Shown here piece after piece: positions 2,082-55,400 of a stretch of 64,000 bases of DNA. A program made the position numbers and the translations under genes. The stretch comes from Stegostoma tigrinum (taxonomy: Eukaryota), in NCBI RefSeq assembly GCF_030684315.1, contig NC_081378.1, positions 23,546,571 to 23,610,570 on the forward strand, in the 5' to 3' direction. Below the pieces are notes generated by a model. It was not told where the DNA came from and ran no database searches. It saw only the letters and a program-made list of their open reading frames with translations. How positions within the stretch are numbered: position 1 is the first letter of the stretch; each line of letters opens with the position of its first letter.

Positions 2082-2166
2082 GAGGGATTGAGGATGTTGG
2101 TTTCCAGGGACCTCGAGTGCACAAACACTTTGTACATTCAATTCTCATTCAAGTTCTTAGCTAAAG
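2082..2166 (+). CDS. RELN: RELN exon (~human ex37), 85 nt: [28 protein letters not shown](G)
   Basis: ttcctgcag|GAG ... AAAG|gtgtgt; absent from the ORF track, translated by hand. Confidence 0.93.
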
Positions 2167-5100: not shown

Positions 5101-8100
5101 AATGATCTGGTTTTGAACAGCACAGGCAGATGCAGAGTAAAGATCTCTCAATTTTGCCCCAGCATTGTTTGCACCTTATTTCAAAGAGTCATTTTGTTAC
5201 ATTTCCATTTCTCAAGTGTTGTAGTGACCAAACTGAACTTTGGAATATCTCTTTGAAGAGCACAAAGACACTGCACATAGATGTAACTCTAGCTCCCCAT
5301 TTTATTCATGCACAAAATAGGAAAGAACCCAAACAAATTTGTTTCGTAAAACATAAGCACATTAAAATACCACATTCAGAGGCAGAAACTAGCTAAGTTA
5401 ATATGATTGGTACCATAATATCTTGCCTAGTCAGTTCTTCATTTATTCCATTGCTAGAAAGCAAATCAACCGTCTACTTATCTTAATAAATAATATCACA
5501 ATGATTTTATAAACATGATCTGATTTCCAGATTATTGTACTGTTACTGAAAATGTTAAACCTTCATGAATAATGGTCTAGTTGGATTTGGTGTAAAATAA
5601 TTTTTATTTTGACTACTGATTAAAATTAAGGAAGGTAAGTTAATGTAGATTTGTGTTCATTGACCATTGTATCTCATTCTTTGACTATGATAGCTTTTGT
5701 GTACAATGATAAGAATGTTGGATTGGCAGCAAATCTAGACATTGTATCAGCATTTACAAATCTTTAAGAAAGTATTGAATGAAATGGTTTGCTTTGTTAT
5801 TATGGAAATCTGAATCGGTTAAAGATGGAATAGAAAGAGATATAATTATGCTTCAATACATAGTTATAAAATTGCACAGAATTAAAATTGGATTTCTAAT
5901 TAAGTTGCACAATAAGCAGTTTGTTTGACTGCCAAGAAATTGAAGTCAACTCCTTTATGATTTTCTGTTCAATGACAAAGGGAAGAAGGAAGAAATCTGG
6001 ATCATCGATGACCTCATTATTGATGGGAATAATCAGAACAATCCTGGCATATTGTTGGATACATTTGATTATGGACCCAAAGAGGAGAACTGGTTCTTCT
6101 ACCCTGGTGGAAACATTGGCCTCTATTGTCCCTATGTTTCAAAAGGAGCCAGGTAAGAATAAGCACTTTGCCTTTGGATGAGGGTATCGCTTGTTGTCTG
6201 TGTAAAGTTCTCATAAGCTAAACCAAAGGCTAGGCAAAACACTATAATGTCCACGTCCAATCTCTCTCCTTTCCAAGTATCCTCCTTCAAGACACTTCTT
6301 AAATCTACCTAATAACTCCTGTATCTGCCTATGTGGCTCAGTGTCAAATTTTGTCTGATTACATTCTGTGAAAGGTCATTGGATATTTCCTGTGTTAAAG
6401 CTAGTATACAAATACAAGTTCTTATTATTGATGGTTACAGTTGATTTATTTAATGTGACTATTCTGAAACTGTTGTTCAACATAACATCCTTCACGATAA
6501 GTAATTATTTTGTAAAATATATCTAAATTACTAAATGACTTGTCATAATTCATTTAGTAATGGGAATATCTATTGTGCTGAACGCCAAAGAATTGTGCCA
6601 TTGTAATAAAAAGCAAACTTGGTCTTGAAGTACAACAATGCCAAAACCTGTTCACAGTTTTAAAATGTCAACCACTTCAACTCCCCCTCCTACTCCTTGG
6701 ACGACATGTCCATCCTGGGCCTCCTCCAGTGCCACAATGATGCCATCCGAAGGTTGCAGGAACAGCACCTCATTTCTCGCTTGGGCACCCTGCAATGGTA
6801 TCAATGTGGACTTCACAAGCTTCAAAATCTCCCCATCCCTAACATCATCCCAAAATCAGCCCAGCTTGTCCCCGCCTTTTTGACCTGTCTGACGTTTCTC
6901 CGACCTATCCGCTCCTCCCACCTCACTGACCAACCCCCACCTCCTACTTACCAGCCTCATCCCCGCCTCCTTGACTCGTCCTCCTTCCCTTGACCTACCA
7001 ACCCCCATCCTAACTCCCCACCTAAACGCACCTTTACTGTCTCCATCCCCGCCTCCTTGAGCTGTCCATCTCCACTCCACCTATTTGCTCCTTTATCCAC
7101 CTTCCATCCGCCACCCCCCACTCTATTTCAAAATCCCCTTCCCCTTTCCTATTTCTGAAGAAGGGCCTAGACCCGAAACGTCAGCTTTCCTGCTCCTCTG
7201 ATGCTGCTTGGCCTGCTGTGTTCATCCAGCTCTACACCTTGTTATCTCATGGTTTTAAAATACCCGGATCAGGGTCTTTTCTATCATTTTCTATCAACTC
7301 ATCACAACCGTATTCTCAGGTATTTTTCAGTTAAACCAGTAACCATTCAGAGACCTTCTACTTAGTGTGTAGTGGAGTCAGGAGGAGAAAGTGTGTTTCT
7401 CCTGGCTTCCTATTAAGTTTACAGGCCACGGCTTTGAAGCAGTATTATTAGAGCATTGCTGTCAATTGATTTGATTGCAGTGACGAGGCCCTGTCCTTGT
7501 GTAGTTTTCATTTACTGGTCAGTGTGCAGCTTTGATATTTTGGTTTGTTTCTCCATTGTCAAGGGAGGAAGATTCCGCCATCGTCTTTGTGTCAAACGTA
7601 GTTGGGGAACATTCCATTACTACTCGCGATCTGGATGTCAATGAGAATACTATTGTTCAGTTTGAGGTAACAACAATTGGAGATACTTACTTCTGCGTCA
7701 GGCTGTTAAGTTCACCACCTTTTTTCCACAACACTCAACATTGAGGTTAGAATTACATAGGGAGCATACCAACTCTAAAAATGTTTGAGGGCTGTAGGCA
7801 AATTCACCACCGAACGTGGCCAAATTACCCAGGACAATTCAATAATGGAGATGAGTAATAAGAGAAAATTCACAAAAAACTGAAAGAACTGCAGATGATT
7901 CCCTACAGTGTGGAAGCAGGCTATTCAGCCCATCAAGTCCACACCAATCCTTCAAAGAGTACCGCACGCTTGGCTGACCCACCTAACATTATGGGACAAT
8001 TTAACATGGCCAATCCACCTAACCTGCACATCTTTGGACTGTGGGAGGGAACAAGAGCACCCAGAGTAAATCTACATAGACGTGGGGAGAATCTGCAAAC

Positions 8101-11100
8101 AGCACACAGACCTGAAGCTGGAATCTGGCGCTGTGAGGTCGCAGTGCTAACCACTGAGGCACTGTGCTGCCCTGCTGGAAATCAGAAACAAAGACAGAAA
8201 TTGCTAAAAAAAACTCAGTAGATCTGGCAGCATCTGCAGAGAGAAAACAGAATTAACATTTCGGATCTGGTGACCCTTCTGAACAGGGACAATTCACGCC
8301 TGATAGGTTCACAGTGAACCTATTGGCCAGCAAATTAGGAGGGAAGCAGTGTGTGATTGGAGGACCAGTGAGAAGGTGAGTTGCAGCAGTAAGCATCTCT
8401 GCTGGAGCAAAATGCAGAGAGGTTGAAGGCTGTGGGCCCAGAGGTACAGGGACTGGAAGAAGATGGGCTGGAGCAAGCAGGACCAGAAAAGAAGGGCCTG
8501 TCCTGAGTGAAAACTCACTTTGCCCCTAGCTTTTGCCATGTATGTATCATCTATGATTCTATGACTTTATCACACACGTAATGTACTACAAATTTCTTAG
8601 AATGCAATGATTGATTTGATTTAAAAAATGAAATTGTTTGGCTATGATCACAAAAGTCTGTGAAAAGTGTTTATGCTGATAGCATTTTGTACATTGGCAG
8701 TTGTTAGTTATTTTTAAAAGAAACATTTGCCAGTAACCTGTGCCTGTTATTTCATGTTGATTTAAATATGGCAATGTTTGAAGTTAATGTTTTCCTTGTG
8801 TTTTAGGGTTTTAAGTTTCATATAGTTGTCATGATTATTGAGATTGTAGTTGAGTTCTTCAAATTCTCTTCCATGAAACCCAAATATCCATTGCATTAGC
8901 ACAAATATCAAAGCTAATGCTGCAGTGAGACTGCATCACCAAATAAAGAAGTTAGTAACAACGAAAGATGAGCACGAAGAAAAGGTATCCCCCAAGGAAG
9001 CCTCAAGAGGAGCCCTCAGAAACTAATCTCTTGACCCTTGGACTGTATCATGAAAACTGACAACTTAGAAATTCAGCTGTGCAATGCCTATTTTGTGAAC
9101 ATTAAACACAGTATTTAGGCTCAGATCCTGGTGACTACCATGAGAGGTTTCTAGTTTGCTCCCTCCTGCAGAACCCACATAATGCAAAGCCCTGCGGTCC
9201 GAAAGCAGAACAAAATATAAACAGCTGCTAAAGTTGTCTGAAACAGAATGTCTTCCCAATATCCTAGGCTCACTGCTTTACTTTGCTAGGCCAAAAAGAC
9301 ATGCTCGAAGACAGTGGACACCTCCTTAAACCAGTCTGTAACACAGCCCATAAATATTTAGAGTAAAATGGGTAAAGCAAGAACAACAAAGGTATTAACC
9401 CATTTAAAATACCCCAGTTAATTTTTTTGAAAGAAATGGAGTATCAAAAAAACATCATTCAGCTAATATTGCCGATAATTTCTTGTAGCTAAAAATGATA
9501 CACGTGTAATATAGAATCAATGATGAATACTGCGCAATGCGTATACGTATATTTTATCTTGGTAACAACACAGCTAGAATATTTAATAAAAGAGCTCTTT
9601 TAGGAATATTTCAAAATTCCAATTCATATTTGTTGGACCAAAACCTTGTGGCAAGCCAGTTGAAAACTATGTGACAGTAATTGTTCAGACTTACCATACT
9701 TCAACAGAAATATGTAAAATCTTTATTATCAGTGAAAGAAATGTAAAGTTAAATTATTTCCATCAGTGATGTCTATTTCCCTTATGATTTCAGATTAATG
9801 TTGGATGCAATGCAGAGAGTTCAGCCTTAGATCCTATTAGATTGGAATTCTCACGGGATTTTGGAGCCACATGGCACTTGCTTCTGCCACTCTGCTATAG
9901 CAGCGGTCACGTCAGTGCACTCTGTTCTACTGAACTCCATCCCAGCAGTACATATTATGCTGGTACCACCCAGGGTTGGAAAAGAGAGGTAATCCACTTT
10001 GGAAGGCTCCATCTGTGTGGGTGAGTTCCTATTCCAGAACGTAAACATGACTTTCTTCTTCCTACACCAGTAGAATCAGTCAATTTATGACTCAAAAATT
10101 CTTTCATAATTGGTTCCAAAGCTGCCTTAGTTTCTTACAATATCCCTAGTTTTATTAGAATGATACAGAGCTGATACATAAGGCTATCATAAACCTGTGA
10201 CCAGCAGTGTTTCACGGGGAGCAGTGCTGGGTCCACTTCTGTTTGTTATTTATATAAATGATTTAGATGAGAGTATAGGGGGCTTGGTTAGTAAGTTTGC
10301 AGATGACATTAAAATTGACAGTATAGTGAACAGTGAAGAAAGTTATCTGGGATTACTAAGGGATCTTGATCAATTGGGTCAGTGGGCTGAGGAGTGGCAA
10401 ATGCAGATTAATTTAGATAAATGTGGGGTCTTGCACTTTGGTAAAACAAATAAGGGCATGACTTATACAATTAAAAGGAGTCCCTTGGATAGTGTTGTAG
10501 AACAGAGAGACCTAGTGGTTCAGGTGCACAATTCTTTGAAGCTTGCATCACATATAGACTGGGTGGTGAAGAAGACGTTTAGCAGGCGTTCCTTCATTGC
10601 TCAGACCTTTGAGTATAGGAATTGCGACATTGTGTTGAGGTTGTACAAGATGTTGGTGAGGCTTCTTCTGGAGTACTGTGTCCAGTTCTGCTGCCCTATT
10701 AAAGGAAGGATATTATTAAGGAGGAGAGGATTCAGAATAGATTTACCAGTATGTTGCTGAGAATGGAGCGTTTGAGTTACAAGAAGAGGCTGAATAAGCT
10801 GGGAACTTTCTCAATGGAGCATAGGAGATTGTGGGGTGACCTTTTCGAGGTTTATGAGAGGTATAGATAAGGTGCCTTTTCCCTAGGGTGGGTGTTATAT
10901 TTTTATCGTGACAGGAGAAAGACTTTAAAAAGACCTGAGGGGAAATTATTTTACACAGAGAGTGATTTGTTTGTGGAAGTAACATCTAGAGGAAATGATG
11001 GATGCAGATACAGTTACAAGATTTAAAAGACTTTTAGATAAGTACATGAATAATAAATGTTTGGAGGGATATGGGCCAAGCGCGGGCAGGTGGGACTAGT

Positions 11101-14100
11101 TTGGGATTGTGGTCAGCATGGACTGGTTGGACTGAAGGGTCTGTTTCCATGCTGTATTTCTCTATGACTCTACAGAAATTGAAATGCTTTATGAGGAAAG
11201 ATATGGCGAGATGTTTCCATTTTTAGGCAAGACCTGAACTAGAGCTTATAAATATAGGACGATCATTGATAAATTCATCTGAGAATTCAGGAGAAATCGA
11301 AAGACTACCACAAAAAAAATTGAGTCAAAGCAAATAAACACAATTGAGGGAAAACAAATATAAGCACATGAAGAAGAAAGGAATAGAAGGATATGTTGCT
11401 AAGGTAAGTTAAGGGTGGGAGGAGGCTTCGTAGAGGAAGAGGAATAGTAGGACTCTGTTGGGCCAAATGGTCCATGTCTGTACTGTAAACACCAAATGAA
11501 TTCCCCATAACAGTACTATAGATAAGAACAAAGAACAATATAGCATAGGAACAGGTTCTTTGGCTCTCCAAACCTGTGCTGACACATTTTACACTTGCAT
11601 ATTAAACCGTCTTCGCTTCCAGGATCCATATCTCTCTGTTCCCTTCCTGTTTGTGTATTCGACCTGGTGCTTCTCGAGTACTGCTATTGTGTCTGCTTCC
11701 ACCGCCTCCTTGGGATGCGCACTCTAGGCACTCAACACCCTTTGTGTGAAAACCTTGCCTTGCACATCTCTTTTAAACACCACCCCCAACAACTTGAACC
11801 TGTATCCCCTCGTAATTAACCCTTCCACCCTGTCAAAATACCTCATACTTTCCATTCCATCCATGTCATTCACAACCTTATAAACTTCTATCAGGTCACC
11901 CCTCTACCTCCTGCATTCCAGTGAAAACAAACCCAGTCTATCCAACCTTTCTTTATAGCTAAAATCACCCAAACCAGGCAACATCCTGGTAAACCTTTTC
12001 TGTACCCTCTCCACAACATCAACATCAACATCAACATCAACATCCACTGGTAGTGTGGTGACCAAAACCGAAAGCAAGATTCCAAGTGTGATCTAACTAA
12101 AGTTCTCTAAAGCTGCAACATAACTTGTCTATCCTTATACAATGCCCCTTCCAATGAAGGTAGGCATACCATAGGCTGTTTTACTACCTTATCTCCCTGC
12201 ACTGTCACCTTCACTGATATGTGACCTGCCCACCCAGATCCCTTTGCATGCCACTACTCCCAAAGGTTCTGCCACTCACTGTATAATTTCCTCCTGCACT
12301 TGACCTTCCAAAACACATCACCTCACATTTGTCTGGATTAAACTCCATCCCCCGTTTTTCTGCCCATGCCTCCAACTGATGTATTACCTGCTGTAAGCTC
12401 TGACCATCCCACTCACTATCTGCAACTCCACCAATCTCTTTATCATCCCCCAACTTACCAATTAGACATTTTCCTCTGAATCATTTATGTAGAGCACGAA
12501 TAACAGAGGTCCCAGCACTGATCCCTGTGGAACACTACTAGTCATTACCCTCCATTTCAAAATGAATCCTTTCACCGCTACCCTCCTATAACTAAATCAG
12601 TTCTTTATCCTTCCTGCCAGCTCACCCCGATACCATGCAACTCCACCTTTTATACCAGTCTGCCATGAGGGATCTTGTCAAAGATTTTACTGAAGTCCAT
12701 GTTGACAATACCAACTATTTCTCTGTCATCAATCATCACCTTCTCAAAAATCTCAATCAAATTAGTGAGGCACAAGACCCCCCCCCCCAACAAAACCATT
12801 CTGTCTATCGCTAATTAGTCCATTTGCTTCTAAATGCATGTAGATCTTGTTCCTGAGAAACTTCCACAATTTCCCTACCACTAATGTGAAGCTTACAGGC
12901 CTGTAATTTCCTGTATTATCCCTACTACCCATTTTAAACAATGGGAAAATATTAGCTGTTCTCCAGTCCTCTGGGACCTCACCTGTGGTCGAAGAGAAGA
13001 CAAAGATGTCCGTCAGTGCTCCAGCAATTTGTTATCTTGCCTCTCTCAATATTCTGGATAGATCCCATCAAGACGCAAGGACTTATCTACGTTAATACTT
13101 CTCAAGACTCACAATACCCCCTCCATTTTAATAGCATCTTGGCTTTGAAATTTGAACTCCCTTTCCTGAGACCATCTTCCGCCAATCCCTTCTCTTTGGT
13201 GAATACCAACACAAAGTATTCATTTAGGACCTAACATACCTCTTCTCACCTCACACACAGATTCCTTCATATGTCTTTGAGTGGGCCAACTCTTTCTCTA
13301 GATACCTTCATGCTTTTTATATGCGTATAAAAGCCTTGGGATTCTCCTTTATCCTGTTTGCTAACAACTTCTCATGAACCCTTTTAGCTCTTCTAATTCC
13401 CTGTTTAAGCTCTTGCCTACTTTCCTTTTATACTTTAAAGGTTTCATCAGTACTCATCCTCCTAGACTTTATGTTTGCTTCCTTTTACTTTTGATCAAGG
13501 TCATAATACCCCTGGTCATCCAAGGTTCATGTAACTTGCCATACCTATTCTTCATTGTCACAGGAACATACCACTCCTGAATTCTTATCTACTGCTGCTT
13601 GAAATACTCCTACATGTCTGATGTGGATTTATTCTGAACTGAAACAGCCATCTTCAATCAAAATTTTCCAGTTCCTGTATAATATTTTAGTTTACCTTCC
13701 CTCAATTTAATGTCTTCACCCAAGGACTGCTGTTATCCCTATCCATGAGTTTCTTAAAACTTAACAGTACTATGGTCACTACTCCCAAAATGCTCCCCCA
13801 CTGAAACCTCACTCACCTATCCAGGCTAATTTCCCAAAACCAGGTCCAGTATAACCCCTTCCCTGGTTGGACTGATTACATGCTGTGTCAAGAAACCCTC
13901 CTGAATGGTCCTTACAAATTCTGCCTCATCCAAGCTCTAACACAAAGTGAGTCCCAGTCAATATAGGGGATGTGAAAAATCACCCACCGCAGCAACCCTG
14001 CTGTTTTTACAGCTTTGCAAAATCTGTCTATATACTTTCTCCTCTATCCCCCACTGGTTATTGGGGCCCCTCTAGAATACCTCCAGCATTGTGATTTCAC

Positions 14101-16415
14101 CTTTCCTATTCCTTAGTTCTCCCCATTTTGCCTTGCTGCAGGAGTCCTCTGATGTATCCTCACTCAGTACAGCTGTGAGATAATCCTTTACCACCAACAC
14201 AAAGTCCCCCACCCCTTTTCCATCCCCTTCTATCACACCTGAAACATCTAACTCCTGGGACATTCAGCTGCCTGTCCTGTCCCTCTTTCAGCCAAGTCTC
14301 TGTAATCTCAATAATGTCATAGTTGCAAGTGTTAACCAAAGCTCTCAGTTCATCTACGTTGCCTAAAAACTTCTCACATTGAAACACATGCATTTCAAGC
14401 CACCTCCCCTGTTCTTTTCAGCAGTGTTTTCCTGCCTGATCCTGTTCTTCGTCATGTTTGCTTTGCTTCTATATCTTTCTCAATTTCTGTGTCCACTGCC
14501 CAACACCACTGGTTCCTATCAGTAGTTTTAATTCTCCCCAAACCACTCCACCAGTACCCACCCCGCTGGACATCAGTCTTGGCCTGGTGTAATCCATCCA
14601 GTTTGTACAGATCCTGTCTCCCTCAGAATGCTCCATGAATTTGAAACCCTGCCCCTCATACCATCTTTTCAGCCACACATTCTAATGACATATCCTGCTG
14701 TTTCTACTCTGACTAGCTCTTGGCACTGACAACAATCCCAAGATAACTGACTTTGAGGTCCTACATTTCAACTTTCTTCCTAGAACTCAATATTCTTCTT
14801 TTAGGACCTTATCCTTTTTTTAACCCATGTTGTTAGTACCAACTTGTACCATGACAACTGGCTGTTTACCCGCCCCTTCCAGAATGTTCTGCAACTGCTC
14901 TGAAACATCCAGGACCCTAGCATCAGGGAGGCAACATACCATTCTGGACTCTTGTTTGTGACTATTGAATCACCTATAACTTTAGCATTTCTATGCCTGT
15001 TTCTCCCTCCCTCTGCATCACAGCCAACACAGTGCCATGAATTTGGCTGCTGCTGTTATCCCCTAAGTGTGCCAATCCCCTCAACAGTATTCCAAAACAG
15101 TAGATGGCATATAAGAAAACTCCGTTTTTCCAGGTGGAAAAGCCTCTTTTTTGCACAAACTTACTTAGCATCTAAGTCAACCTCTTTTTCAGTTAATCTT
15201 ACTCTACCTTCCCCTGTTCTGAATCAAGAGAAAGGCTCCATAAACCCTGCATGTCCACTCCTCCCTCCCACCATGATCCTGACTTCACTTACATTGTGCC
15301 ACCAAGAGTGAAAAAAGTACATTAATTGAAAATAAGAAACAATTCTACAGTAACCCCTGTTCCTTCCATTCATACCTGTTCCCAACACTAGTTTTCCTTG
15401 GACATTTTTCTTACTGCTCCTATTTCATTTTCAGACCTTTCTCTTTTATCAAGCCACCAGTGTCAACTTGATCATTGTCAACTCTGCCATTCTGAGCGTT
15501 TATTTAATTACCCGTTCTTTAAATATGTTTTCACTCACGTTTTTGGTGTTACCGTCCATTGGTAAAGGCATGGACTGCTACAATGCAGCTAAAACAAGCA
15601 GAAACATCTGCCTGCCCTGTCAGGATAATATCATTTCAACCCAGACTTTGGTATGTAAAACAACTCTTTACTGAGTTCTCATCAATTGATATCCTATTGT
15701 TCACTAAGCAGACTGATTATTCAGTTCAAGTGTCCAATGAAGGTGTTTATGTACAAAGTCCTTTTGTTGTTTCGTCTCACATTATAAAATAATCTTTCCT
15801 AACTTTTATTTTCATATGATTTGGTTTGTGGATGTGCTTCCTACGGTCACAGATCTGTGAGATTTCGATGGTACCAAGGGTTCTACACGTCAGGCTCTCA
15901 ACCAGTGACCTGGGCCATCGATAACGTTTACATTGGACCACAGTGTGAGGAGATGTGCAATGGACATGGTAGCTGTGTCGGTGGAACCCAGTGCATTTGC
16001 GACTCCAGGTATTCTGGACCAACCTGCAAAATCAGCTCCAAAAACCCAGATTTCTTGAAGGGAGACTTCAAAGGTTTGTTGAAAACAATGTATTTGTAGT
16101 TTTGTAAACCCTGGGTTAAAGGAAATGACACAGAAGTATTGCAAAGTGTGTGGAGAATGAAGGCCATTTTCTGTTGTTATTATTAATGATAATGCTTCCA
16201 GTGTATTTTATTCTGAACATTGGGGATGTGAAGCTGTTTGAAACATGATGAAAATGGTGGGGGGGGGTGGGTCACCTGGTTGGAACATCCATTCAGATTA
16301 TTAGTACACACTCACAGGTTTTCTACCTCCTTGCTCACCAACCCATGGCTTTCTGTAAATTGTGTGGAAAGTCACAGGCTTATGGGTATAGGAGTGAAAA
16401 ACCACAGCCAGTATT

Positions 16416-16451
<36 letters not shown>

Positions 16452-19400
16452 AAGATTATTAGAATGGTGGAGGGAAGGAAGGAGAGTATTACATTTCTGT
16501 GCTTTGAACATCATGGTTTGTGGTCAGTGGAATCAGCTGGTGTTTCTGTGTGATTCAGTAGAAAGAGAGAAATCCTATTAGTAATTAATAAGGCTGTCTA
16601 TCATAGCAACAATATGTGTCTAAGTATTTCATGCAATAAATTGCTGTTACTAGTATGGTGAAGGTTACATAAGCAAATGGCAGTCATTTTTCACCATTAA
16701 TAGTGCTCAGATGACTGCATGACAAAAGGCCAGCCCTTCTGCTTTTGACTTTAACTTTTGGTCAGTAGCTTTACCTTTTGAGTTGTGCCATGGGTTCTAA
16801 AACTGGCACTTGAACTTGTCTCCCAAATTACAACACCTCCATTAACACAACACTCCCCCACTGCTTCACTATTATTTAAGAATTGGACTGGGAGCTTAAA
16901 CCCACAAAGGTTTGACCAACTGAATCTAGCTAATATCACCGATCACCATTAAAAAAGCCTGAAGTTATCAAAAAGTCTACTACAGCATAATCGATTGGTT
17001 TGAAATAGCAGTCTCCCCAGTGTGCATGAGTTAGACTGAAATTAATTCTGTTCTTTCAGATGGTTGTAAAAGTTCACAAGACACCATTTCAAGGAAGATT
17101 GGGGAAATTACCCAATATTTATCCTCAAAACCAATCATAAAAATTGATTATCTGCTGATTGTTGCTTTGATGTTTGCTATGCACACATGGGCTACTCTGT
17201 TGTCGAGATTACAAGAGCAGGGTTACAAACTGTCCCAGAATGATTCTGCTAGACTGGACATCAGTCTCCTGGTGGCTAAAAGAAAGCATTCCAAGAGATT
17301 GGAATACCACTTTCTCAATGCAAGTTTTGTGAATTTTCAACATTCTCCATTCTTGGAAGTGTAACATGGACATATGTTACAACAGGCGACATGGTGGCTC
17401 AGTGATTAGCACTGCTGCCTCAGCACTACAAACCCAGGTTTGATTCCACCCTTGGGCAAGTGTCTGCGTGGAGCTTGCGCATTCTCCCTGTGTCTGCAAG
17501 GGCTTCTGTCAGGTGCTCTGGTTTCCTCCCACAGCCCAAAGATGTGCAAGTTAGATGAATTGACAATGTTTAAATTGTCTGCGGTGTCTGGGATATGCAC
17601 TCTGGATGAATTAGCCATGGCAAATGGATGGATAGGGTAGGGGGTTGGGTTTGTGTCGGATGCTGATCAGAGGCTTCGTGTGGATTCGATGGGTCAAATT
17701 GCCTGTTTCCACACTGTAGGGATTTTGATTCCATGAACTACATCATCAGTAAACTGCGTGGAAACACGCATTGCTTCCTTCTGAGTAGGTGCTGGCTAAA
17801 GATCTTTCTTTCTTCAATGAATCTCAGTTACAGGCATGATTGTGCCTCTACACACTGGTGCCTGCATATAAAAACAGAGATAATGGGAACTGCAGATGCT
17901 GGAGAATCTGAGATAACAAAGTGTGAAGCTGGATGAACACAGCAGGCCAAGCAGCATCTCAGGAGCACAAATGCTGACCTTTCGAGCCTAGACCCTTCAT
18001 CAGAAAAGCAGGAGGGGGAGAGGGTTCTGAAATAAATAGGGAGAGAGGGGGAGGTGGATCGAAGATGCATATAAAAACAAACAGGTTTTAGCCATGGCTA
18101 TTTTGGATTAACTGCGCTAAAAAATGAAATATTTACTGCCCATGATTTACTTTCCACTTCTAATGTTTTCATGAACTTTGATTTTAGCAAGGTTCATTTG
18201 TGTGCAGATATAAAAGGTTTTAGAGTGAGAGTAACAGAATCACATAAAAGACAAATTAAAAGGATCATGATTTTGTACAACATTAACATTAATAAAATTG
18301 AACAGAAATGAGATTGGAAAAAGTCAACGTGCGTCTGCAAAAGACTGAAGCATTTTAATAGCTATGTTTTGCGTCTATTTAATGGAGAATTGCTCTCTAC
18401 GTTTTTGAATGTAGCAGGCTGCAGATTTGTTCGGTTCAGTGGATACTTTTCGGATGCTGATCTTGTTTCTCAATCGAGTAGCTGATATGCCACTAAATGC
18501 CAATTGATCAAGCTAAGAGTTTACATGGGGTAGAATGTGAATAATTAGGAATGATCTATTTTAAATTATAATCTAGCATTATTTTTATTAAAGATTATTC
18601 AGAGGATAACATTTTGAAACTCTCTAAAATATGGTAATAATAAACTTTGTAACTCTTATGCAGCAATAGTTTGTAACTATAAACCACATTGGCTTAAATG
18701 TAGTCTAACTGGCAAGGCAGCCATTCAAACCTGTGATGTCTGATTTCACATGCTTTACTCACTTTAATTTTCAGGCCCAATAGACCCAGAGAAATTTTTA
18801 GTGGTCAGCGGTGGGAGGCCATCCAGGAAATGTGGCTTAATGTCCAGTGGAAACAGCCTCTTCTTCAGTGAAGAGGGACTGCGCATGCTGATGACTGTGG
18901 ATATGGATTTGTCACATGCCAGGTATTTGAAACACATTTATCATTCAGCCTCCTTTCTTAATTGCTCATAAGTTGTTTTACATTCACTTAATTCTAAGTG
19001 AAATAATGTGTAAATGAGAAAAGCCTATTCAAACTCATTCTTCTTTAACTCACTGTACAAGCCTAGCTTAACAATTAAGTGTCTGCCTCCTATCTTAATA
19101 CTAACTGCTGTACTCTCATTCTAATCTGTCAATTGATATTTCCATTAAGTTGTATTTGTTATACCAAGTGACAGCTAATTTTAAATGTGCAATAATTACT
19201 TCTCAAGTCTGCTTGAACTTCATTTCCCCTTCAAGTGATGATTCATAAACCTAATATATCAATATCTCTGTTTCTGTCTCTTTCTTTTATTTTCCATCTC
19301 ACACAAGCCCTCCCCAACTCAAATGCTGATTTTTGACATGTTTATTGTTCTCCAATTTCATCATATCAAGAGCAGAATATTACTTTTATTTTAAAAGTTT

Positions 19401-43400: not shown

Positions 43401-46400
43401 GTAGTCCAAAATCAACGCGCTCATGTTCAACAGGGGCCAAAAATACTTTGAAGCTGGCTACAAAGACGACTTAGTTACAGACTTAATTTATCTGTCTTTG
43501 GTGATTGTCTAATGTCAGTCGTGTTTTGTATTGAAATTGCAATAGGACTGTAACCTGGCAATTATCATTATTACACTTTACGGACTCCCTCTAACTCCAT
43601 AATACATACCTGGTAAGGGAGTAATTCATGTAGAAAAAAGTAGAAAATAGCCTCTGTCTAAAAAATGCATCAACCCAATTTTCAGTGTTCATTTTACAGT
43701 TTCAAATCTCAAGCTAACTACAGTTCTATGACCTTGAAACAACATCTTTATTATAGCCCTGAAACCCAGATATAGCTTTCTAATTTCAATTCAGTCATGC
43801 ACCCCTGTTTGGTTTGGTGTTCTCGTTCACTCAGGGTGAGTTGCTGTTGCACTTTCACCTGCGTTTTTTTGGATGGAGATGTTAGAGAATCCTACTTTTC
43901 TCCATCACATGACTGATCAGAAATCTTTCTCTCTCGTACCACCTGCCGTTACTGTGTAGAGGGAGGATTTGCAGATTAACTTGCAGTTTGGCCACATTAT
44001 GATTGCACCTTACTTTGTCATCAAGCTTCTAGCTCAGAGACAAAAATGCTGCTCTCTACACCAGAGGACCTCCCAAGCGACCCAGAAATAAGCTCCTCAT
44101 TAGAGTCTTGAGTCCCAGATACAAATCTCTTGTCACAAACAAGATGCAAGCTTCCAGTTAAAGATGTATCCCCCAGTTTCAGAAGCTTCTTAGTACATAA
44201 GTTTTTAATTACAGGTTTGAGACCCAATATCATTAGTATCTGAACAACAGCCAAATATTTAGTGACTTCAGATAAATTTTATCTTGACTATCACACTATA
44301 AAGTCACTGCAGGTCTAACCAAACCAAAGCATTGGATAATATAATAATTCTGTCATTAGTAGATAAGAGATTAAGATTGGAAGAACCCATAGATGCATTT
44401 GTTTATAAATTTATCACTTGATATTTGAGATGAGCCGGCAACCTGATTCACTATTGGTAGGTATCAGAATGGATTTCTGTGTAAAATATTTGGCACGAGC
44501 AACAGGTGATACTTCACTAATATGTGCATTTATCTTGAAAACTGATGGAAACTGTGAACATGCCTGCAGATTACAAACTAAACAAGTACTGGATGTTCCA
44601 CGATGAGTGCTCTGTGGAAAGATTCTGTGACTCCCCTGATGGAGTGATGCTCTGTGGCAGTCATGATGGCCGGGAAGTTGATGCAACAACACATGACCTT
44701 ACACCCGGTGAGCACTGGATTGTGCAGTTCAAGGTAAAGCCTTCTGTTCCAGCTTACAAAGCCAGAAGTTAATACAATGTCTGAATATATTGTATGTCTG
44801 GAGCAAAATATGTATGTGCTAAATTTTAAAACTTTTGAAAGGGTAGAAGAGCAAAGATTTAATGGGTTCAGAAACCCAAGTAAGTTGGAAGGAACAGATA
44901 TAAATACTCAGTTGATCTAATTCAGGATGACACATCAGTGCTGTGCATGTTGGGATATTTGAGATTCTCCTTCAGACTACAGGGTGTTCTGGAATAAAAC
45001 AAAATTGGTTCAAATCTAGTGGGTGAGTCAAAGCCTGATAATGAGACAGGTTAGCATTTCAGATGGATTTTAGATAGCATCATGACTGTTATTAAAGATA
45101 ATGGGAACTGCAGATGCTGGAGAATCCAAGATAACACAATGTGGAGCTGGATGAACACAGCAGGCCAAGCAGCATCTCAGGAACACAAATTTTCTGATCA
45201 AGGGTCTAGGCCCGAAACGTCAGCTTTTGTGCTTCTAAGACGCTGCTTGGCCTGCTGTGTTCATCCAGCTCCACACTTTGTTATTTATGACTGTTATTAA
45301 CTTGTGTTCCTCATGCAGAAATTGACAAACCTGTAAAGAACTGTTAGCATCTTCTTCATATTTCAAATTTCCAGTATTTAGGTCTTCACTCCCTTTACAA
45401 AGGTAGCTGAAGTTGTTTCAAAATGAACATAGAATTCTTAACAGGTTGTCCATCAAGACAGACAGAAATTAACATTGACATTTAGATTACAATATTGCAT
45501 TGGACCAGTTATGATTTTTCTGTTTTACAACTGGAAACCGTGCAGACAGCACAATGCCGAAAGGATCAATATTTTTGATGTAGTTATGAGTCTCATTTTT
45601 ATTTGCTAACAATTAGTGTTCTTTCGTACTGCAGTAATGCTCTTTGTGGTTTTGAGCTGTTTATTTTCTCCAGAAAAATTTCACATGAACAAAACGGTTG
45701 ATGCAATTTCAAAAGAGCAACAGCAGTCGATGAAAAATAGCAGTTGTGGGCTCAGAGAAATTTGATGAAAGCATCAAAGCAACCATCATGACAACAAAGT
45801 GTGAAGCTGGATGAACACAGCAGGCCAAGTAGCATCTCAAGAGCACAAAACCTGACGTTTCGGGCCTAGACCCTTCTTCAGAGAGGGGGATGGGGAGAGG
45901 GTTCTGGAATAAATAGGGAGAGAGGGGGAGGCGGACCGAAGATGGAGAGAAAAGAAGATAGGTGGAGAGGAGAGTATAGGTGGGGAGGTAGGGAGGGGAT
46001 AGGTCAGTCCAGGGAAGACGGACAGGTCAAGGAGGCGGATGAGGTTATTGGTAGGAAATGGAGGTGCGGCTTGAGATGGGAGGAAGGGATGGGTGAGAGA
46101 AAGAACAGGTTAGGGAGGCAGAGACAGACTGGGCTGGTTTTGGGATGCAGTGGGGGGAGGGGACGAACTGGGCTGGTTTTGGGATGCAGTGGCGGGGGGG
46201 AAGATTTTGAAGCTGGTGAAGTCCACATTGATACTATTGGGCTGCAGGGTTCCCAAGCGGAATATGAGTTGCTGTTCCTGCAACCTTCGAGTGGCATCCT
46301 TGTGGCACTGCAGGAGGCCCATGATGGACATGCCATCTGAAGAATGGGAGGTGGAGTTGAAATGGTTCGCGACTGGGAGGTGCAGTTGTTTATTGCGAAC

Positions 46401-49400
46401 CGAGCGGAGGTGTTCTGCAAAGCGGTCCCTAAGCCTTGAAAGTATTTTTCCACAACAAGTTAGTTAATGTCTACCAAAGGTCTGGATCTTGCCCAAAACC
46501 GATTCTTCTCTTCAGAAATGAATTGAAATGTCATTTTTATTTATGGTAAATACAGTATTTGGCAGAAAAAGTCATATATTATTGCTTATTGGATTCAATT
46601 GATTATATTCTTTCAGATTTCAGTGGGCTGCAGAACTACAGAAAAGGTTGTTCAGAATCAAGTTCATGTTCAGTATTCCACTGACTTTGGAGTTAACTGG
46701 CATTACCTGGTGCCACAATGTCTGCTAGCTGACCCTCAGTGCTCTGGTGATACCACACAACCATCTGTGTTCTTTCCTGCCAAGGAGTGGAAAAGGGTCA
46801 TTTATGCACTGCCAGAAAATCTGCTGGGCCAGTGAGTAAAGTGCTTTTGTCATGAAGTGATGCTGCTCAATTGCTTCTTTTTGACTGGATAGCAAATTGA
46901 CTGAAAATTTGGAGTTTTCAAATATACGTTTTGGCCGTGTTGACTGCAATTTCCAGTTCTTCCAAAATGTGTCCCTTTCTCTTTATTAAATATTCAAATT
47001 CAGACTAGACGGTGTAATGTTTGTGTAACGTTTAAGCTTTAGCAGTTCAGGATCCACATCAACCCAACATCTCAGCACACACCACGGCCTCCCCCAAATG
47101 CTAATCAACAATCCCACACTAAACCTGAAACCTGAAAACTGGAGAGAAGGAAATTTCTATGCTTAGCTGAGATATTAGTCTGGACCTGACGGTCATGAGA
47201 GTCCAGGTGTCACAACACCAGTGGAAATTATTTTCTTTATCCCTTCGTGGGTTGTGAACTGTTGTTGTTCATCCATAGTTCCCCTTGATTGATAATTACT
47301 GCAGTTTTGGCATCGCATTCAGGCCAAGCCAAGTAAGAACAGCAAATATCAGATTTCCTTCCCCAGGTTTTTAGAACAATTAATGATCACTTTATAAACA
47401 TTGTTACCGAGACTACCTTTCAATTCCAGATCCTTATTAACATAGTTTAAATTCCACCAGCTGCTGCAGTGGGATTTTAACCCACATCCCTGGATCATTT
47501 GTCTTGTGAAATTACCACTATGCCATCATCCCTCCCTATGTGGTGCCATGAACATTGCCCAATACGTCAATTACAAACTGGTGAAATGACAAAAGGAAGC
47601 ATAGCTCCCAATCTTCCTTCCCAGTTCAATAGCAGAAATAAAGCTGCCGCCACCTGCTCCTCTTGTCCTCTACCTAGTGCAGTGCAATTAATCTAACCCT
47701 CCTCTTTGTTCATATTCCCCATCCCTTCCCCCCTCTTTTCTGCCTTTGTGTTCAGTTATCTTCCAGTTGACAAACTAACCTTTCACTTTGCTTGTATTGA
47801 ATGCTGCACTTGGCTTTGTCTCTCCAGTGTGTAGCACCTCAAGAGACTAAATTCAAAATCTTTCATGTACCTGCACATCCTGTCAACATCTTCCTATCTT
47901 AAGTTCCCATGTGCACATCTGTAATTTAGTAATTAGATCCTCTACTGTTATGAGTAGACCCTGGTGAGGTTTCCACTTTGTTATGGTTCCAGATGAGGAG
48001 GAATGAACTGGCTCCCCTTCCTTATTTGCCCAACCCTCTCAGTTGGTCACAACATGGTTTATTTAAAAACAATTCCTTCCCTTATGATTCCCTTTCGCCT
48101 GGATGAAGTTTTTTTTTTAAAAGGAGCTGTTTGAACAAGGCTTTCTTGAATTAACAAGCAAGGGTAGGTATCTGATTAGTGAATGCAAAAAGAGATACTA
48201 ACACATGGAAACATAGAACATAGGAACCGGAGTAGGTCTTTTTGCGCTTCAAGCCAATTCCGCTATTCAATATGATGACGGCTCTGAACTCAGTACTCCG
48301 TTCCTGCTTTCTGCATATATCCTTTGATTACATTCGTGGTAAGAAGTATATAAATTTCCTTCTTGAATTCCATAGGCTCACCACCCTCTACGTGAAGAAA
48401 TTTCTCTTCGTCTCAGTCCTAAATGGCCTACCTTGTATCCTGAGACTTTGTCTGGTTCTGGATTCCCTGCTCATCGGAAACATCCTTTGCATGTTTTCCC
48501 TGACTGGTTTTGTTAGAACTTTATAGATTTCTATGAATCCCCTCTCATTCTTCTAAACTCCGGTGAATACAGTCCTAACTGATACCCCTTTCCCAAACTA
48601 TTGCTTCCAGATAATAACCAACTTTCCTGTTTTTGCTACCAAAATAGATAAGCTCACATTTATCCACATCATACTTCATCTGCCATATATTTGTCCACCC
48701 ACTCAACTTGTCCAAAACACACTGAAATAGCACACATGCGCACAGATTAGAAATAAGAGGTAAATTTAAAAGATCAAAGTAAAACACGGGTTATATTGAT
48801 CAGTCCTTGCATTATTCACAAAGAGCAGATTTTTGAAAGTTATGTGTGTTGTCATGGAGGTTACTGGTTCCATTGACTTTAGAAGTTGAATAATCAGTTT
48901 TATCATCTTTCATTTTGCCAATTGGGTAAAATTCTGTTGTTCTGATTTCTTTGGCCATAATTGAATTCCAGCATTCAGTGTCAGAGAGAGTCATTTTGTT
49001 GTCCTGTTTCTTTTTGGATGGATACCTTTTAGCTATCAGAAAAAAAGGCTCTTAACCTGCAACACAGAGGTAACCAGAGCATAGCTCTTGACTGTGACTT
49101 TCACAGCACACACAAGAATGTTTAGTCCCACCAGCACATTCTGGTAGGGTTGAAACTATCTCTTCAGCTCCTATCCTTGGGTATTTTTCAAAGGGAAAGA
49201 CACAAAAGGAATTTGCAGTTTGCATCATAATCCACAAGGTTTGCTGTTGAACAGAGGGTCATCACCTCTTGTTATTTTTGTAGTCACAAGAGATTACAGT
49301 CCAGTCTGTTTGACTTGGCTCTCTGCCCCCTGCCCCCACTCACCTTCATGAGGCTTGTTGTTTGAAGTTTCCTTCGCAGCTCGAGGTATTAATTCCGTGG

Positions 49401-52400
49401 GTCTCTCTCTCTCCATCCAGCCAATTAATCGAAATCTGCAGCCAGTTTTAGCTATCTCAGCCCTGTGTTAAATAAGTACTTTGAGGTTCTGACTCGTGGT
49501 TATGACACCACCATCCTATTGAAAGTACTGCAATGTTACCACTGGCAGAATTGAGTGACTACAACATGGCACCTTTACAAAGATGATTTCCATTATAAAT
49601 TTTGCATAAACATTTGTAATATAAATATAAACACGAATGCTGAATTTATATCTTTGAAATGAAGACTGAATTATATCTGCATGTGCAAGTTCATATGAAT
49701 CAGCTTAACCTAAAGATTACAGTTGGTATAAATTCCCTTGAGAAGAGAAATGGCAATCAACTTTCATACCTACCATGTAACTTTGATTCCGCTTTTCACT
49801 CAAACCCCAGCATGTGACTGGAGGAGGCTAAACAGCATTGTTTGAAATCAATATTTACAAATGTAAGTGAAAGTAATAGTCATAGAGATATACAGCACAG
49901 AAACATGCCCTTCAGCTCAGCTTGTCCATGCTGACCAGGTTTGCTAAACTGAACCAGTTCCACCGTCTGCACCTGGCCCACATCCCTCTAAACCTCTCTA
50001 ATCCATGTACCTGTCCAAACATCATCCAAATGCTGTAATTATATCTGCCATTACCACCACCTCTAGCAGCCCACTCCAATACGCACGATCCTCTGAATGA
50101 AAACGTTGCTCCTCAGCTCCCTTACAAATATTTCTCCCCCCACCTTAAATCTATGCTCGCTAGTTTTGAACTCCACTGAAACATCAAAGTTTAATACAAG
50201 CAACCTTTGATTCTTAAATATCACAGAGGACTTTTAATATTTGTGATATTCATGGATGCTTATTAATAGTATTCTATTCCAAAATGAATAAGGTCACTGT
50301 TAGATGTATGAAAATAATGTTAAGTAGCTTTTTCAAGTCAGTGGTCAGTACTCAGCACTTAATTTATAGTAGTTGCTGAACACCACTGGCCTGACGCAGT
50401 GCTGGAAATTGTCCACTGTACATCCAGCGCCTTTCATCATTCTTCAGCCAAGTGAATGAATTAATCATTTTTTTCCGGCAATAAACCTGACTCCATGTTG
50501 CTCTGAGCAATGGATCAGGGCCACCGATAGTAACCAATAACAAACTGGCCTGAAAAAAAGCAACAAAGGAGAGCCTGCTGTACATTTTAATTTCTCTATC
50601 TGCTGGAGCACTTTTACAACTGAGCAAGGATGCAGAAGGAAAAACATGACAATTTTGATTGAATAATCAAAATATTTTTGTCAATATCTTTGATCAGTTT
50701 TCTTAACTTGCTTCATTTTCACAAGATTATCATTCTGGAATATGGAGACTCTTGGGCAAATTCCAAGTGAATTTAAATTAACACATTGTATTCTATTTCA
50801 GTCCTGTGAGATTCCGATTCTGTCAGAAGTATTCCGATATCCAGTGGGCGATTGACAATTTCTATGTGGGGCCTGCTTGCCCAGACAATTGTGGAGGACA
50901 TGGGGACTGCCTGAATAAACAGTGCTACTGTGACCCTGGCTTCACCGGGTCAAATTGTTACTTGAGTCACCCGCTAAAGGTATTATTGGATTATGCAAGA
51001 TTTCCTAAGATATCAAGACAAGCAGAATATTTATCTGAAAATTCACAGACAATGTATTTTTGAGTCGAGAGTAACAGACCAAAATGGATATCATGATTGT
51101 TTATACAGCTCAACACAAACGATTTTCATCTTTTTATTAGTAATTAATGTGATTCATTACAGGTGTTCTTCATTATTCAGATACATAACAAATTAAGCGT
51201 ATAAAACTCTAGCTGTTAAAAGAATGTGAGACACCATGGCTTTTTCAGTGAATGTTGCTCAGTTTTGCACTTGCCCAAAAATGGATCAAATGCCCACTTC
51301 TAGATAATAATCATTGATATCAGTGAAAGATTTAGTCATTATCTGCTAACAATACTTTGGGATAACTTCCTTAATAAATGATTTATTATTGATAAAGGCA
51401 CTGGTTACTATAATTTTAAGCCATACAGACCAGAAGATTAAACTTCCTATTTCTGCTGAGTTAGCTGATCCTAGTCACAGCAGCATTTGAAATGATGAGC
51501 ATCAGTAACCCCAGTGGAACCCTTCCAGTCGTGGTCACTGATCAGTAACCTTAGTTGGAAGGTACAGGACATTGGGAAGAACAAAATACTGCTTGCAGTC
51601 ACAAAGTGTTGTCAGAGGCTGACTGTCAAAGCTCAATCAGGAAGAATGTTATGATATTGGAATACTGCCAATCCACATAACATCTTGTGATTGTTTAACG
51701 TGCTGGTAGTTTGTAGATATTGTGTATTAATTACTGCTAAACAATCCTAATCATACAATTATTGGGAGATGCCAAGTAGAGGCAAGACACTTCTAAAGGC
51801 ATGGGAGGGGGTGGAGGTTACCAGTAAATGCTGTCACACAGTTCCTGGAGATCACGTATGGAGCAGAAAGACGGGTACTTGAAAATAATTCACCTCTCTT
51901 AGTGCAAGAACTACATAAACCATGGAATCAGAGAAAGGGAAAAACAAAACCAGCTTAAATGTTTTTATTCACTTTGTTTTTATAATATCCCAAGCTGGAG
52001 GTAGGAAAGTTTCATTGCCTTTGATCCATGTAGTAATAGGTTGTTCAATGTGTTACAGACTTCATTAAAGGAGCGTTTTGAGAGTGATGCCGCAAAATCA
52101 GACCTATGGATTTCTCTGGAAGGCGGGAAAGCATGCACTGACTGTGGTGTCCTTGTGGAAGATTTGCCCTTGTATTTCAATGGAGCGGGCATGAGGCAGG
52201 CATTAACTACAGACCTTGATCTTCGGGGTACAAAGTAAGTTTTATGCAGCTAGGTCTATATCAAGTTTCCTTTCATAAACGTGATACAAAATTCTTTGGT
52301 TAAAGCAATTAGAATTGGCTTTCAAATATAGGTGCACACAAAACTGCCACTAATTTGATGCTAACCAATGCCTAACTGGCAAAATTGCTTCAGGACATCA

Positions 52401-55400
52401 CAAAACAGAAATAAAAAAAACACTGCAGTACCAGATGGTTCTTGTCCAATGTTAGTGATTAAAGGTGGGCTTGTTCGCTATCTATATTCATTTCCTTATC
52501 CGGGATTACTTAATGCTGATAGGAAAATCATTCACTATCTTGTGGTTGGTGTAAATATCACCTGAACTAAGTAAAGTATTTGTGCAGATTAGATGAGGAA
52601 AGTCCACAATCGAGCTTGCTCGTTTGTCTTATGCTCTCCATTCAGTTGATTGTTCACACATGAGCACAATAAGGGAAACTTATCCTCTGGCGTCTGAAAC
52701 AGGAAATGTTAAATTTCCTAGCCAATTGTGAACTTTGTTCACTTGATGAACACAAAATAAGTATAAACCATTTAATAACTGGAAAAAGAAAAACAATTAA
52801 GAGAGGAAGGAGTTCAACTGCAACCTAAGCTTCAAAGATACCCCACATTTTCTGAATGAACACAGGAATTAATGGAAAAAGTAGATCGAGCAGCATAGAA
52901 CAGAATCCCTGCAGTATGAAAGAAGGCCATTCAGCCCATCAAGTCCATACCAACCCTCCAAAAGCATCCGACCCAGACCTACCACCTTCACCATCCCTGT
53001 ATTTCCCACTGTGGACACTATGAGCAATTTAGCATAGCCAATCCACCTAAGCTGAACCTCTTCGGATTGTGGGAAGAAAATCAAACCTGAATCCCTGGCA
53101 CTGTAAGGTAGCAGTGCTAGCCACTGTGCTGCCCATTTGTGGACAGAAAGCAGAGTTAACATTTCAGGTCCAGTGACCCTTCTTCAGAACTACTGCTCTG
53201 CACTGAATTGATTGTCCCCGATTTTGACTGTGGGTTGAGACAGAATGTGGGAAATTAAAATAGGTGCAAGAGGACTCGTAGGGAAGGTGCAATTTTGCCG
53301 TAAAGAGTGATCTCAAAGGTTTTGATGGGTTGTTGACAGTTGAACTTGGATCTTCCATTTGCCCCATGTGTGACACGGAGGCAGGATTAGTGAGACTGAG
53401 ATAATGGGAACTGCAGATGCTGGAGAATCCGAGATAACAAAGTATGGAGGTGGGTGAACACGGCAGGCCCAGCAGCATCTCAGGAGCACAAAAGCTGACA
53501 TTTCGGGCCTAGACCCATCATCAGAAAAGGGGGATGGGGAGAGAGTTCTGACATAAATAGGGAGAGAGGGGGAGGCGGATCGAAGATGGATAGAGGAGAA
53601 GATAGGTGGAGAGGAGACAGACAAGTTAAAGGGGCGGGGATAGAGCCTGTAGAGGTGAGTATAGGTGGGGAGGTAGAGAGGGGATAGGTCAGTTGGGGAA
53701 GACGGACAGGTCAAGGGGGCGGGATGAGGTTAGTAGGTAGGAAATGGAGGTGCGGCTTGAGGTGGGAGGAGGGGATAGGTGAGAGGAAGAACAGGTTAGG
53801 GAGGCAGAGACAGGCTGGGCTAGTTTTGGGATGCAGTGAGGGGAGGGGAGATTTTGAAGCTTGTGAAATTCATATTGATGCCATTGGGCTGCAGGTTTCC
53901 AAGCGGAATATGAGTTGCTGTTCCTGCAACCTTCGGGTGGGATCATTGTGGCACTGCAGAAGGCCCAGGATGGACATGTTGTCTAAGGAATGGGAGGGGG
54001 AGTTGAAATGGCTCGTGACTGGGGGGTGCAGTTGTTTATTGCGAACCAAGCGTAGGTGTTCCGCAAAGCGGTCCCCAAGCCTCCGCTTGGTTTCCCCAAT
54101 GTAGAGGAAGCCACAACAGGTGCAGCGGATGCAGTATACAACATTGGCAGATGTGCAGGTGAACATCTGCTTGATATGGAAACTCATTTTTGGGCCTGGG
54201 ATGGGGGTGAGGGAGGAGGTGTGGGGGCAAGTGTAGCACTTCCCGCGGTTGCAGGGGAAAGTGTCATGTGTGGTGGGGTTGGGGGGGTGGGGGGGATGTG
54301 TGGAGCAGACAAAGGAGTCATGGAGAGAGTGGTCTCTCCGAAGGCAGACAGGGGTGGGGATGGAAAAATGTCTTTGGTGGTGGGATCAGATTGTAGACGG
54401 CGGAAGTGTCGGAGGATGATGCACTGGATCCGGAGGTTGGTGGGGTGGTATGTGAGAACGAGGGGGATTCTCTTTTGGCAGTTATTGCAGGGACGGGGTG
54501 TGAGGGATGAGGTGCGGGAAATGCGGGAGACATGGTCGAGGGCGTTCTTGACCACTGAAGGGGGGAAGTTGCAGTCCTTGAAGAACAAGGACATCTGGGA
54601 TGTATGGTAGTGGAATGCCTCATCCTGGGAGCAGATGTGGCGGAGGCGAAGGAATTGGGAATAGGGGATGGAATTTTTGCGGGAAGGTGGGTGGGTGGAG
54701 GTGTATTCCAGGTAGCTGTGGGAGTCGGTGGGCTTGAAATGGATATCGGTTTGTAGGTGGTTGCCTGAAATGGAGACTGAGAGGTCCAGGAAGGTGAGGG
54801 ATGTGTTGGAGATGGCCCAGGTGAATTTGAGGTTGGGGTGAAAGATGTTGGTGAAGTGGATGAACTGTTCGAGCTCCTCTTGGGAGCATGAGGTGGCGCT
54901 GATACAATGATCAATGAAATGGAGGAAGAGGTGGGGTTTGGGGCCAGTGTAGATGCGGAAGAGGGACTGTTCCACATAACCTACGAAGAGGCAGACATAG
55001 CTTAGTCCCACGCAAGTACCCATGGCCACCCACTTTGTCTGTAGGAAGTGGAAGGAATCGAAAGAGAAGTTGTTGAGGGTGAGGATGAGTTTGGCTAGGC
55101 GGATGAGGGTGTCGGTGGAGGGGAACTGATTGGGTCTGCAGGACAGGAAGAAGCGGAGGGCCTTTAGGCCATCCACATGAGGAATGCAGGTGCATAGGGA
55201 CTGGACGTCCATGGTGAAAATGAAGTGTTGGGGACCGGGGAATTGGAAGTTCTGGAGGAGGTGGAGGATGTGGGTGGTGTCACGGACAAAGGTAGGGAGT
55301 TCCTGGACCAAGGAGGAAAAAATGGAGTCCAGATAGGTGGAGATGAGTTCGGTGGGGCAGGAACAGGCTGAGACAATGGGTCGACCAGGGCAGGCGGGTT

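Follow-up and report, generated by a model that had tools for sequence, protein, structure and literature searches.

Minimal hammerhead ribozyme motifs of broken Penelope-like elements in the reelin introns of Stegostoma tigrinum

Introduction

The window analyzed here is a stretch of 64,000 nucleotides from Stegostoma tigrinum (assembly GCF_030684315.1, contig NC_081378.1, positions 23,546,571 to 23,610,570). Its + strand carries coding exons of the reelin gene (RELN), and its introns contain a series of motifs with the core of a minimal hammerhead ribozyme, three of them intact on the sense strand. A preliminary description of this DNA proposed that the intact sense copies could pair as dimers in a single RELN pre-mRNA and cleave its introns during transcription. 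In this study, the motifs, the elements that carry them, their abundance in the genome and their predicted folding in the RELN transcript are examined. From the observed sequence, context, copy number and strand symmetry of the motifs, and from predicted folds, we consider it highly probable that they are minimal type I hammerheads in the pseudo-long-terminal-repeat (pLTR) ends of broken Penelope-like elements (PLEs), and that they are passive, decay neutrally and cause no cutting of RELN that matters.

The host gene and the motifs

The gene was identified as RELN by a match to Pfam family PF21471, a match to a reelin structure in PDB and an exon map. Three exon joints (4830/5981, 6152/7564 and 7666/9794) fall at GT-AG introns in one 6.9-kb spliced contig, which belongs to a run of a related organism and is presumed to derive from RNA. 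The other RELN exon boundaries are approximate, and the joints flanking the motifs at 36129, 41525 and 45194 were set by tblastn alone. The three intact sense copies lie one each in three separate introns: the copy at 7155 in a 1411-nucleotide intron (6153-7563), the copy at 36129 in the intron ~32717-37084 between exons ~32573-32716 and ~37085-37261, and the copy at 41525 in the intron ~39686-43011.

All 12 sites cited in the preliminary description are present in a direct readout of the window. Eight motifs were recovered when both strands were scanned with structure taken into account, four sense (7155, 36129, 41525 and 45194) and four antisense (45881, 53524, 18003 and 40433), named here by their first base. 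The three intact sense cores read CTGANGA..GAAACGTC with C3 at 7155, 36129 and 41525, and the predicted cuts follow positions 7182, 36156 and 41558. Both conserved parts of the core, CUGANGA and GAAA..UH, are complete in these three copies and in 45881, and incomplete in 45194, 40433 and the remnants. The defect in 45194 is G8C, a change that abolishes the activity of the Anolis PLE ribozyme (PMC11167929). An unpaired base between positions 9 and 10.1, the G10.1-C11.1 pair and a helix II are found in all eight scanned motifs. Helix III is a loopless ACGU palindrome in the four intact copies, and helix I has 2 base pairs (bp) in family A (defined below) and 3 bp in family B and in 45881. Among 75 distinct CG cores, helix I has 2 bp in 54, and helix II reaches at least 4 bp in 53, versus 2 after shuffling. 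The strict core pattern occurs four times in the window, compared with 0.01 times on average when 100 windows were Markov-resampled. An Rfam scan of the window gave no hammerhead among 18 matches at E<=10, and no Rfam family fits the motifs.

The motifs are PLE minimal type I hammerheads, a known class whose members can cleave weakly as dimers. The preliminary description had named this class, and its account of Penelope pLTR hammerheads agrees with a study of metazoan PLEs (PMC4209133). It also gave the motif positions, the three intact sense cores and the defects at 45194 and 40433 correctly. It did not mark the antisense copy 45881 as intact, although the core, the ACGU palindrome and the 4-bp helix II of this copy are all preserved (helix I has 3 bp); intactness is therefore not peculiar to the sense strand. 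Nor do the motifs form a single dispersed set as supposed, since they come from several families. Family A comprises 7155, 36129, 45194, 18003, 45881, 53524 and the remnant at 29-58, family B comprises 41525 and 40433, and other families are represented by 53187/8250 and by 22655. The coordinates of the motifs and their carriers are listed in Table 1.

Table 1. Features of the window, with their strand and the basis of each assignment
Feature	Position	Strand	Basis
RELN coding exons, ~21 in window	2064..62665	+	profile and structure-database matches, tblastn exon map, spliced contig
Family A hammerhead motif, core and ACGU intact, helix II 3 bp, helix I 2 bp	7155..7182	+	scan, contig
Family A hammerhead motif, core and ACGU intact, helix II 4 bp (one G-U), helix I 2 bp	36129..36156	+	scan
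Family B hammerhead motif, intact, helix II 6 bp, helix I 3 bp, right arm of inverted insertion	41525..41558	+	
Family A hammerhead motif, fully intact, antisense to RELN, ends PLE fragment 45790-46436	45854..45881	-	
Family A hammerhead motif with G8C (CTGATCA), within fold-back 45096-45284	45194..45221	+	scan
Family B hammerhead motif with U4C (CCGATGA)	40400..40433	-	scan, fold prediction
Family A hammerhead motif, palindrome broken (AGGU), reads GAAAGGTC	17976..18003	-	scan
Family A hammerhead motif, palindrome decayed (AUGU), reads GAAATGTC	53497..53524	-	scan
Third-family hammerhead remnant, GAAATGTT, longer helix I	53158..53187	-	sequence readout
Third-family remnant, CUGA box damaged	8250..8282	-	sequence readout
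Fourth-type remnant, CTGATGA..GAAC, A15.1 lost	22655..22686	-	sequence readout
Family A remnant without C3-U4	29..58	-	sequence readout
5'-truncated, broken family A PLE end (endonuclease C-terminus, pLTR, tail), carries 7155	6672..7248	+	
Broken family A PLE fragment (reverse transcriptase end, Cys linker, GIY-YIG, pLTR), carries 36129	34952..36214	+	
Longest family A PLE, broken; reverse transcriptase frame 54184-55593, Cys linker and GIY-YIG 53870-54385 in another frame	53381..55800	-	
One two-armed family B insertion	40344..41639	.	sequence comparison, fold

Penelope-like elements that carry the motifs

The three intact sense motifs each lie at the end of a fragment that retains parts of a GIY-YIG endonuclease or reverse transcriptase (RT), and in families A and B the hammerheads lie downstream of such fragments, that is, at the location of the pLTR. 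The order in family A is an RT frame, a CX4CX2C linker, a weak GIY-YIG match and then the hammerhead. The linker reads CNRGKCYTC at 53870-54385 (-) and CNHRKCYTC at 34925-35590 (+). The GIY-YIG matches have E values of 0.001-0.002, below Pfam's cut-off; the RT frame gave no hit in the Pfam search and matches RVT_1/HTH_animal clusters at 0.96-0.97. The element that carries 7155 is 78% identical to the longest family A copy in the window. An RT followed by a C-terminal GIY-YIG domain, 5' truncation, an inverted 5' copy and a tail are also features of endonuclease-positive (EN+) PLEs, and the CX4CX2C linker resembles that of Neptune and Nematis (PMC8557442); by this motif family A would be Neptune-like, clade names being given here by motif only.

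The family B insertion consists of two arms, ~40355-40890 (-) and 41047-41603 (+), that are identical at 521 of 536 aligned bases and contain GIY-YIG frames at 40390-40848 (-) and 40978-41541 (+). A tail of ~28 nucleotides is found on the right arm only, and an 11-nucleotide direct repeat, likely a target-site duplication, flanks the insertion on both sides. The head-to-head arrangement is also seen in 106 of 387 family A rows. A study of Poseidon PAc from Anolis (PMC11167929) described a pLTR hammerhead upstream of the tail, as here, and a tail that is optional on one arm, as in the family B insertion and in the fetched family A loci. Separately, as part of a RELN intron the 40344-41639 insertion would form double-stranded RNA over ~536 bp, and this RNA would likely be a substrate for adenosine-to-inosine editing.

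Abundance and strand symmetry

One exact family A pattern matches the 3.2-Gb genome 114,273 times (56,989 forward and 57,284 reverse), or about once per 28 kb, versus no matches for the reversed pattern. Given this copy number, the window is typical of the genome and not special.

The effect of orientation was examined in nine long genes covering 1.77 Mb, which consist of 200 kb inside each of eight genes and 174,746 bases of RELN; only this part of RELN was used because a Reeler-domain search did not locate its 5' end. The eight other genes, four on each assembly strand, were located from successive CUB or Laminin G matches that share a strand and are presumably CSMD, NRXN, CNTNAP and CUBN genes. 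The exact pattern occurs 38 times in sense and 36 times in antisense, compared with 31.7 expected per strand from the genome density, and any core with ACGT occurs 65 and 56 times. When copies were detected by their tail, independently of the core, 195 of 395 were sense and 200 antisense (p=0.84). After 156 truncated copies were set aside, 239 spanned the core: it is intact in 82 of 120 sense and 73 of 119 antisense copies (p=0.28), and 52 of these sense and 47 of these antisense copies have kept ACGT as well (p=0.60). With copies that have an opposite-strand partner within 300 bases excluded, 215 remain (105 sense and 110 antisense), of which 41 and 31 are intact. The sense:antisense ratio of single genes scatters widely, from 8:1 to 2:7. 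With about 18 exact-pattern cores per megabase per strand, the genome tolerates them on the sense strand of long genes, where no depletion is visible. This speaks for single minimal hammerheads being silent or doing no harm when they are part of a host transcript. Tandem retrozymes are under-represented in Xenopus introns, but these are tandem arrays and not single copies (10.64898/2026.07.22.740005).

Decay of the core was likewise equal on the two strands. Non-CpG core positions differ from the majority at 34 of 1200 sites in sense and 34 of 1190 in antisense copies (0.028 each), versus 0.037 and 0.034 for the flanks and 0.19 and 0.22 for CpG sites. Core decay is CpG-driven and neutral, with no conservation beyond the neutral flanks when measured across copies rather than per locus. 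The depletion of intact sense cores from introns for which the preliminary description proposed a test is not seen in the nine genes, and orientation-blind neutral decay is the outcome that it had itself named as speaking against its model of co-transcriptional intron cutting.

These rates also bear on whether a copy has been domesticated as an intronic ribozyme. The precedent is in amniotes, where type I hammerheads occur in sense orientation in introns of RECK and CTCL (PMC6155905), and there is a slight, non-significant surplus of intact sense copies here. However, the RECK and CTCL motifs are conserved and resemble canonical retroelement hammerheads, whereas the copies here are minimal, high in copy number, decaying and housed in broken repeat fragments; their core positions decay like the flanks, and 7155 has lost one helix II pair. 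Domestication is accordingly the explanation to which we give the least credence.

Pairing of the copies in the RELN transcript

A study of metazoan PLEs found no activity for hammerhead monomers and low activity for dimers (PMC4209133). The Anolis PLE hammerhead was uncut when PLE protein was absent, and no RNA-seq reads ended at its site (PMC11167929). The strand order implies that the two copies of a type I dimer would form both helix I and helix III between them. The proposal that sense copies sharing GAAACGTC dimerise within one RELN pre-mRNA has in its favor the weak dimer cleavage of that study, three sense cores that keep all conserved bases and the ACGU palindrome, and compatible helix I strands in 7155 and 36129, which form 2 bp in trans. 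Helix I has 0 bp when either of these copies is paired with 41525, including the closer pair of 36129 and 41525, so the common GAAACGTC is not sufficient for a dimer across families A and B. The only compatible intact sense pair lies in separate introns with 28.9 kb and 8 exons between the copies, and transcription from 7155 to 36129 would take ~7.6 min at the human rate of 3.8 kb/min, compared with 5-10 min for splicing (PMC2995048).

By nearest-neighbour energies, the active dimer of 7155 and 36129 has +1.0 kcal/mol versus -13.8 kcal/mol for two separate monomers. In their intron context, the predicted probability for these copies is at most 0.02 for helix II and 0.00 for helix I. Young reference copies of family A are equally unfolded, with helix II above 0.5 in only 13-15 of 100, so that poor predicted folding would be a trait of the family, which fits a requirement for protein, and not a defect of the RELN copies. 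Pairing of the tail with a C-rich upstream sequence is predicted for the young reference copies. The idea of a block by this sequence, relieved when the 5' end is short, was rejected, as the helix II probability is at most 0.02 with anything from 2 to 100 upstream bases.

The family B copy 41525 is predicted to fold well when taken alone (helix II 1.0, helix I ~0.4). In the minimum-free-energy fold of the 1281-nucleotide insertion, 44 of the 45 positions 41520-41564 pair with the upstream arm, which is transcribed ~1.1 kb earlier. The copy is thus predicted to be sequestered by its mirror arm, the complement of 40433 included, in a duplex of 536 bp. With this sequestration, the separate introns and the absence of a strand effect, we regard dimerisation and co-transcriptional cutting within RELN as very unlikely.

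The preferred reading, in which the motifs are passive passengers, can be put as follows. Broken PLEs landed in the reelin introns and brought their pLTR hammerheads along. The ribozyme likely serves the element's own RNA, and cutting of that RNA would need a second compatible copy and probably element protein. For the RELN transcript, the predictions favor other pairings over the fold of 7155 with 36129 and place 41525 in a double strand with its mirror arm.

Several points weigh against this reading. Absence of cutting is what we infer, and rare cutting would be compatible with the data. The share of sense copies among the intact ones has a 95% interval of 0.42-0.63, which is compatible with mild depletion. 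The unpaired intact family A copies lean toward sense (41:31 and 22:12, p=0.29 and 0.12), and of 14 family B copies, 8 have an intact core in sense and 1 in antisense (p=0.04 in a post hoc test; p=0.07 for the sense excess once the window copy 41525 is dropped). The strand test may be insensitive here, since two control repeats, a short interspersed nuclear element (SINE, 123/117) and one long interspersed nuclear element (LINE, 39/40), also lack an antisense bias; a second LINE gave 19/4. In mammalian cells, cutting by a hammerhead does not keep an intron from being spliced (Dye 2006 and Fong 2009, via PMC2995048), so that strand symmetry points to the absence of harm rather than of cutting. 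Nearest-neighbour energies ignore tertiary contacts and protein, and the same energies call young and presumably working copies unfolded, so the RELN copies are not singled out by them.

Copy ends and cutting in trans

Family A copies end sharply 5' of the core. In local counts from sampled loci and the window, 25 strict ends fall at -4 to -1 versus 2 at -13 to -5; the former are often blunt head-to-head joints and may mark the 5' end of the element RNA. A local peak of copy 5' ends, made up largely of fold-backs with microhomology, lies at +28, the first base after the predicted cut; strict ends genome-wide at +26 to +30 number 161, 444, 3008, 390 and 467. Fold-backs at the AGCT by the predicted cut number 682, versus 47 at the ACGT five bases upstream. 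As the single dominant end, +28 was rejected locally, since counts at offsets +34 to +39 are 2, 2, 0, 2, 2 and 2 versus 3 at +28. A tail-only family A fold-back without a hammerhead, at 34105-34264 in the window, has arms that start at offsets +34/+35.

Among the first 100 of the +28 ends listed, 64 are AGCT fold-backs and 10 belong to a second microhomology class; the remaining ends extrapolate to ~780 (530-1070), only about twice their neighbours. Of the +28 loci, 30 were fetched, and 2 of these show a direct joint to flanking DNA with a target duplication. The same pattern of ends could arise from microhomology or if the reverse transcriptase pauses at the edge of the fold. That the +28 ends are a genomic record of hammerhead cutting is a tentative reading, which we hold to be somewhat doubtful.

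The footprint has also to be weighed for rare and harmless cutting in trans, in which element RNA or a same-family intronic copy, together with PLE protein, would cut a family A sense copy and exon tethering would let splicing finish. The copies are very abundant, cleavage of the Anolis PLE hammerhead is protein-assisted (PMC11167929), and the +28 peak and the AGCT fold-backs are as expected of a cut at this site. On the other side, the two microhomology classes account for 74 of the first 100 ends, the local ends at +34 to +39 are as frequent as those at +28, and clean joints are few; moreover, the footprint bears on element RNA and not on host RNA, and PLE protein would be required in RELN-expressing cells. 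We consider such cutting improbable. It is likewise unlikely that protein-bound family A hammerheads cut in cells and leave the +28 record, and that this protein together with an element RNA cuts intronic sense copies such as 7155 and 36129 in trans, harmlessly through exon tethering.

Comparison with known systems and significance

The motifs resemble the minimal hammerheads of metazoan PLEs (PMC4209133) in their CUGANGA core, the extra base between 9 and 10.1, the G10.1-C11.1 pair, the absence of loop 3, the palindromic 15.2-16.2 and a short helix I. They are also alike in that most are single dispersed copies from truncated PLEs, with some close opposite-strand pairs. The copy number here, with 114,273 exact matches of one pattern, is far above the 4,000-9,000 given there for coelacanth and Xenopus. 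Family A has a helix I of 2 bp and a helix II of 4 bp, compared with 4-5 and 7-8 bp in Schistosoma (PMC4209133), and its helix I is at the short end of the published range. Unlike PAc, for which protein-assisted cutting was assayed (PMC11167929), the copies here are known from sequence alone.

As a known motif class in an ordinary repeat with no apparent effect on reelin, the locus matters little as it stands. The in vivo role of PLE hammerheads is left unresolved in PMC4209133 and PMC8557442, and the copy ends, which may mark where the element RNA starts and where it is cut, bear on this role. Cutting of host introns, if it occurred, would affect many of the long genes, a large share of them. 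The literature searched, which left most subscription journals outside, yielded no account of this locus and none of PLE hammerheads that cut host introns.

Other repeats in the window

The SINE-like family that served as a control (123:117 in the nine genes) is abundant and is found in the window at 17391-17611, 22060-22280, 30713-30933, 58120-58237, 7977-8111 and 52900-53110. A LINE-type RT fragment lies at 56027-57390 (-). With a + strand query, its related pieces in the nine genes are 19 sense and 4 antisense; they are thus mostly antisense as elements, unlike the other repeats. Additionally, a near-perfect inverted repeat of ~130 bases at 58371-58500, just upstream of the exon at ~58588, resembles a miniature inverted-repeat transposable element and gave weak matches to miRNA models, below the cut-off, in the Rfam scan.

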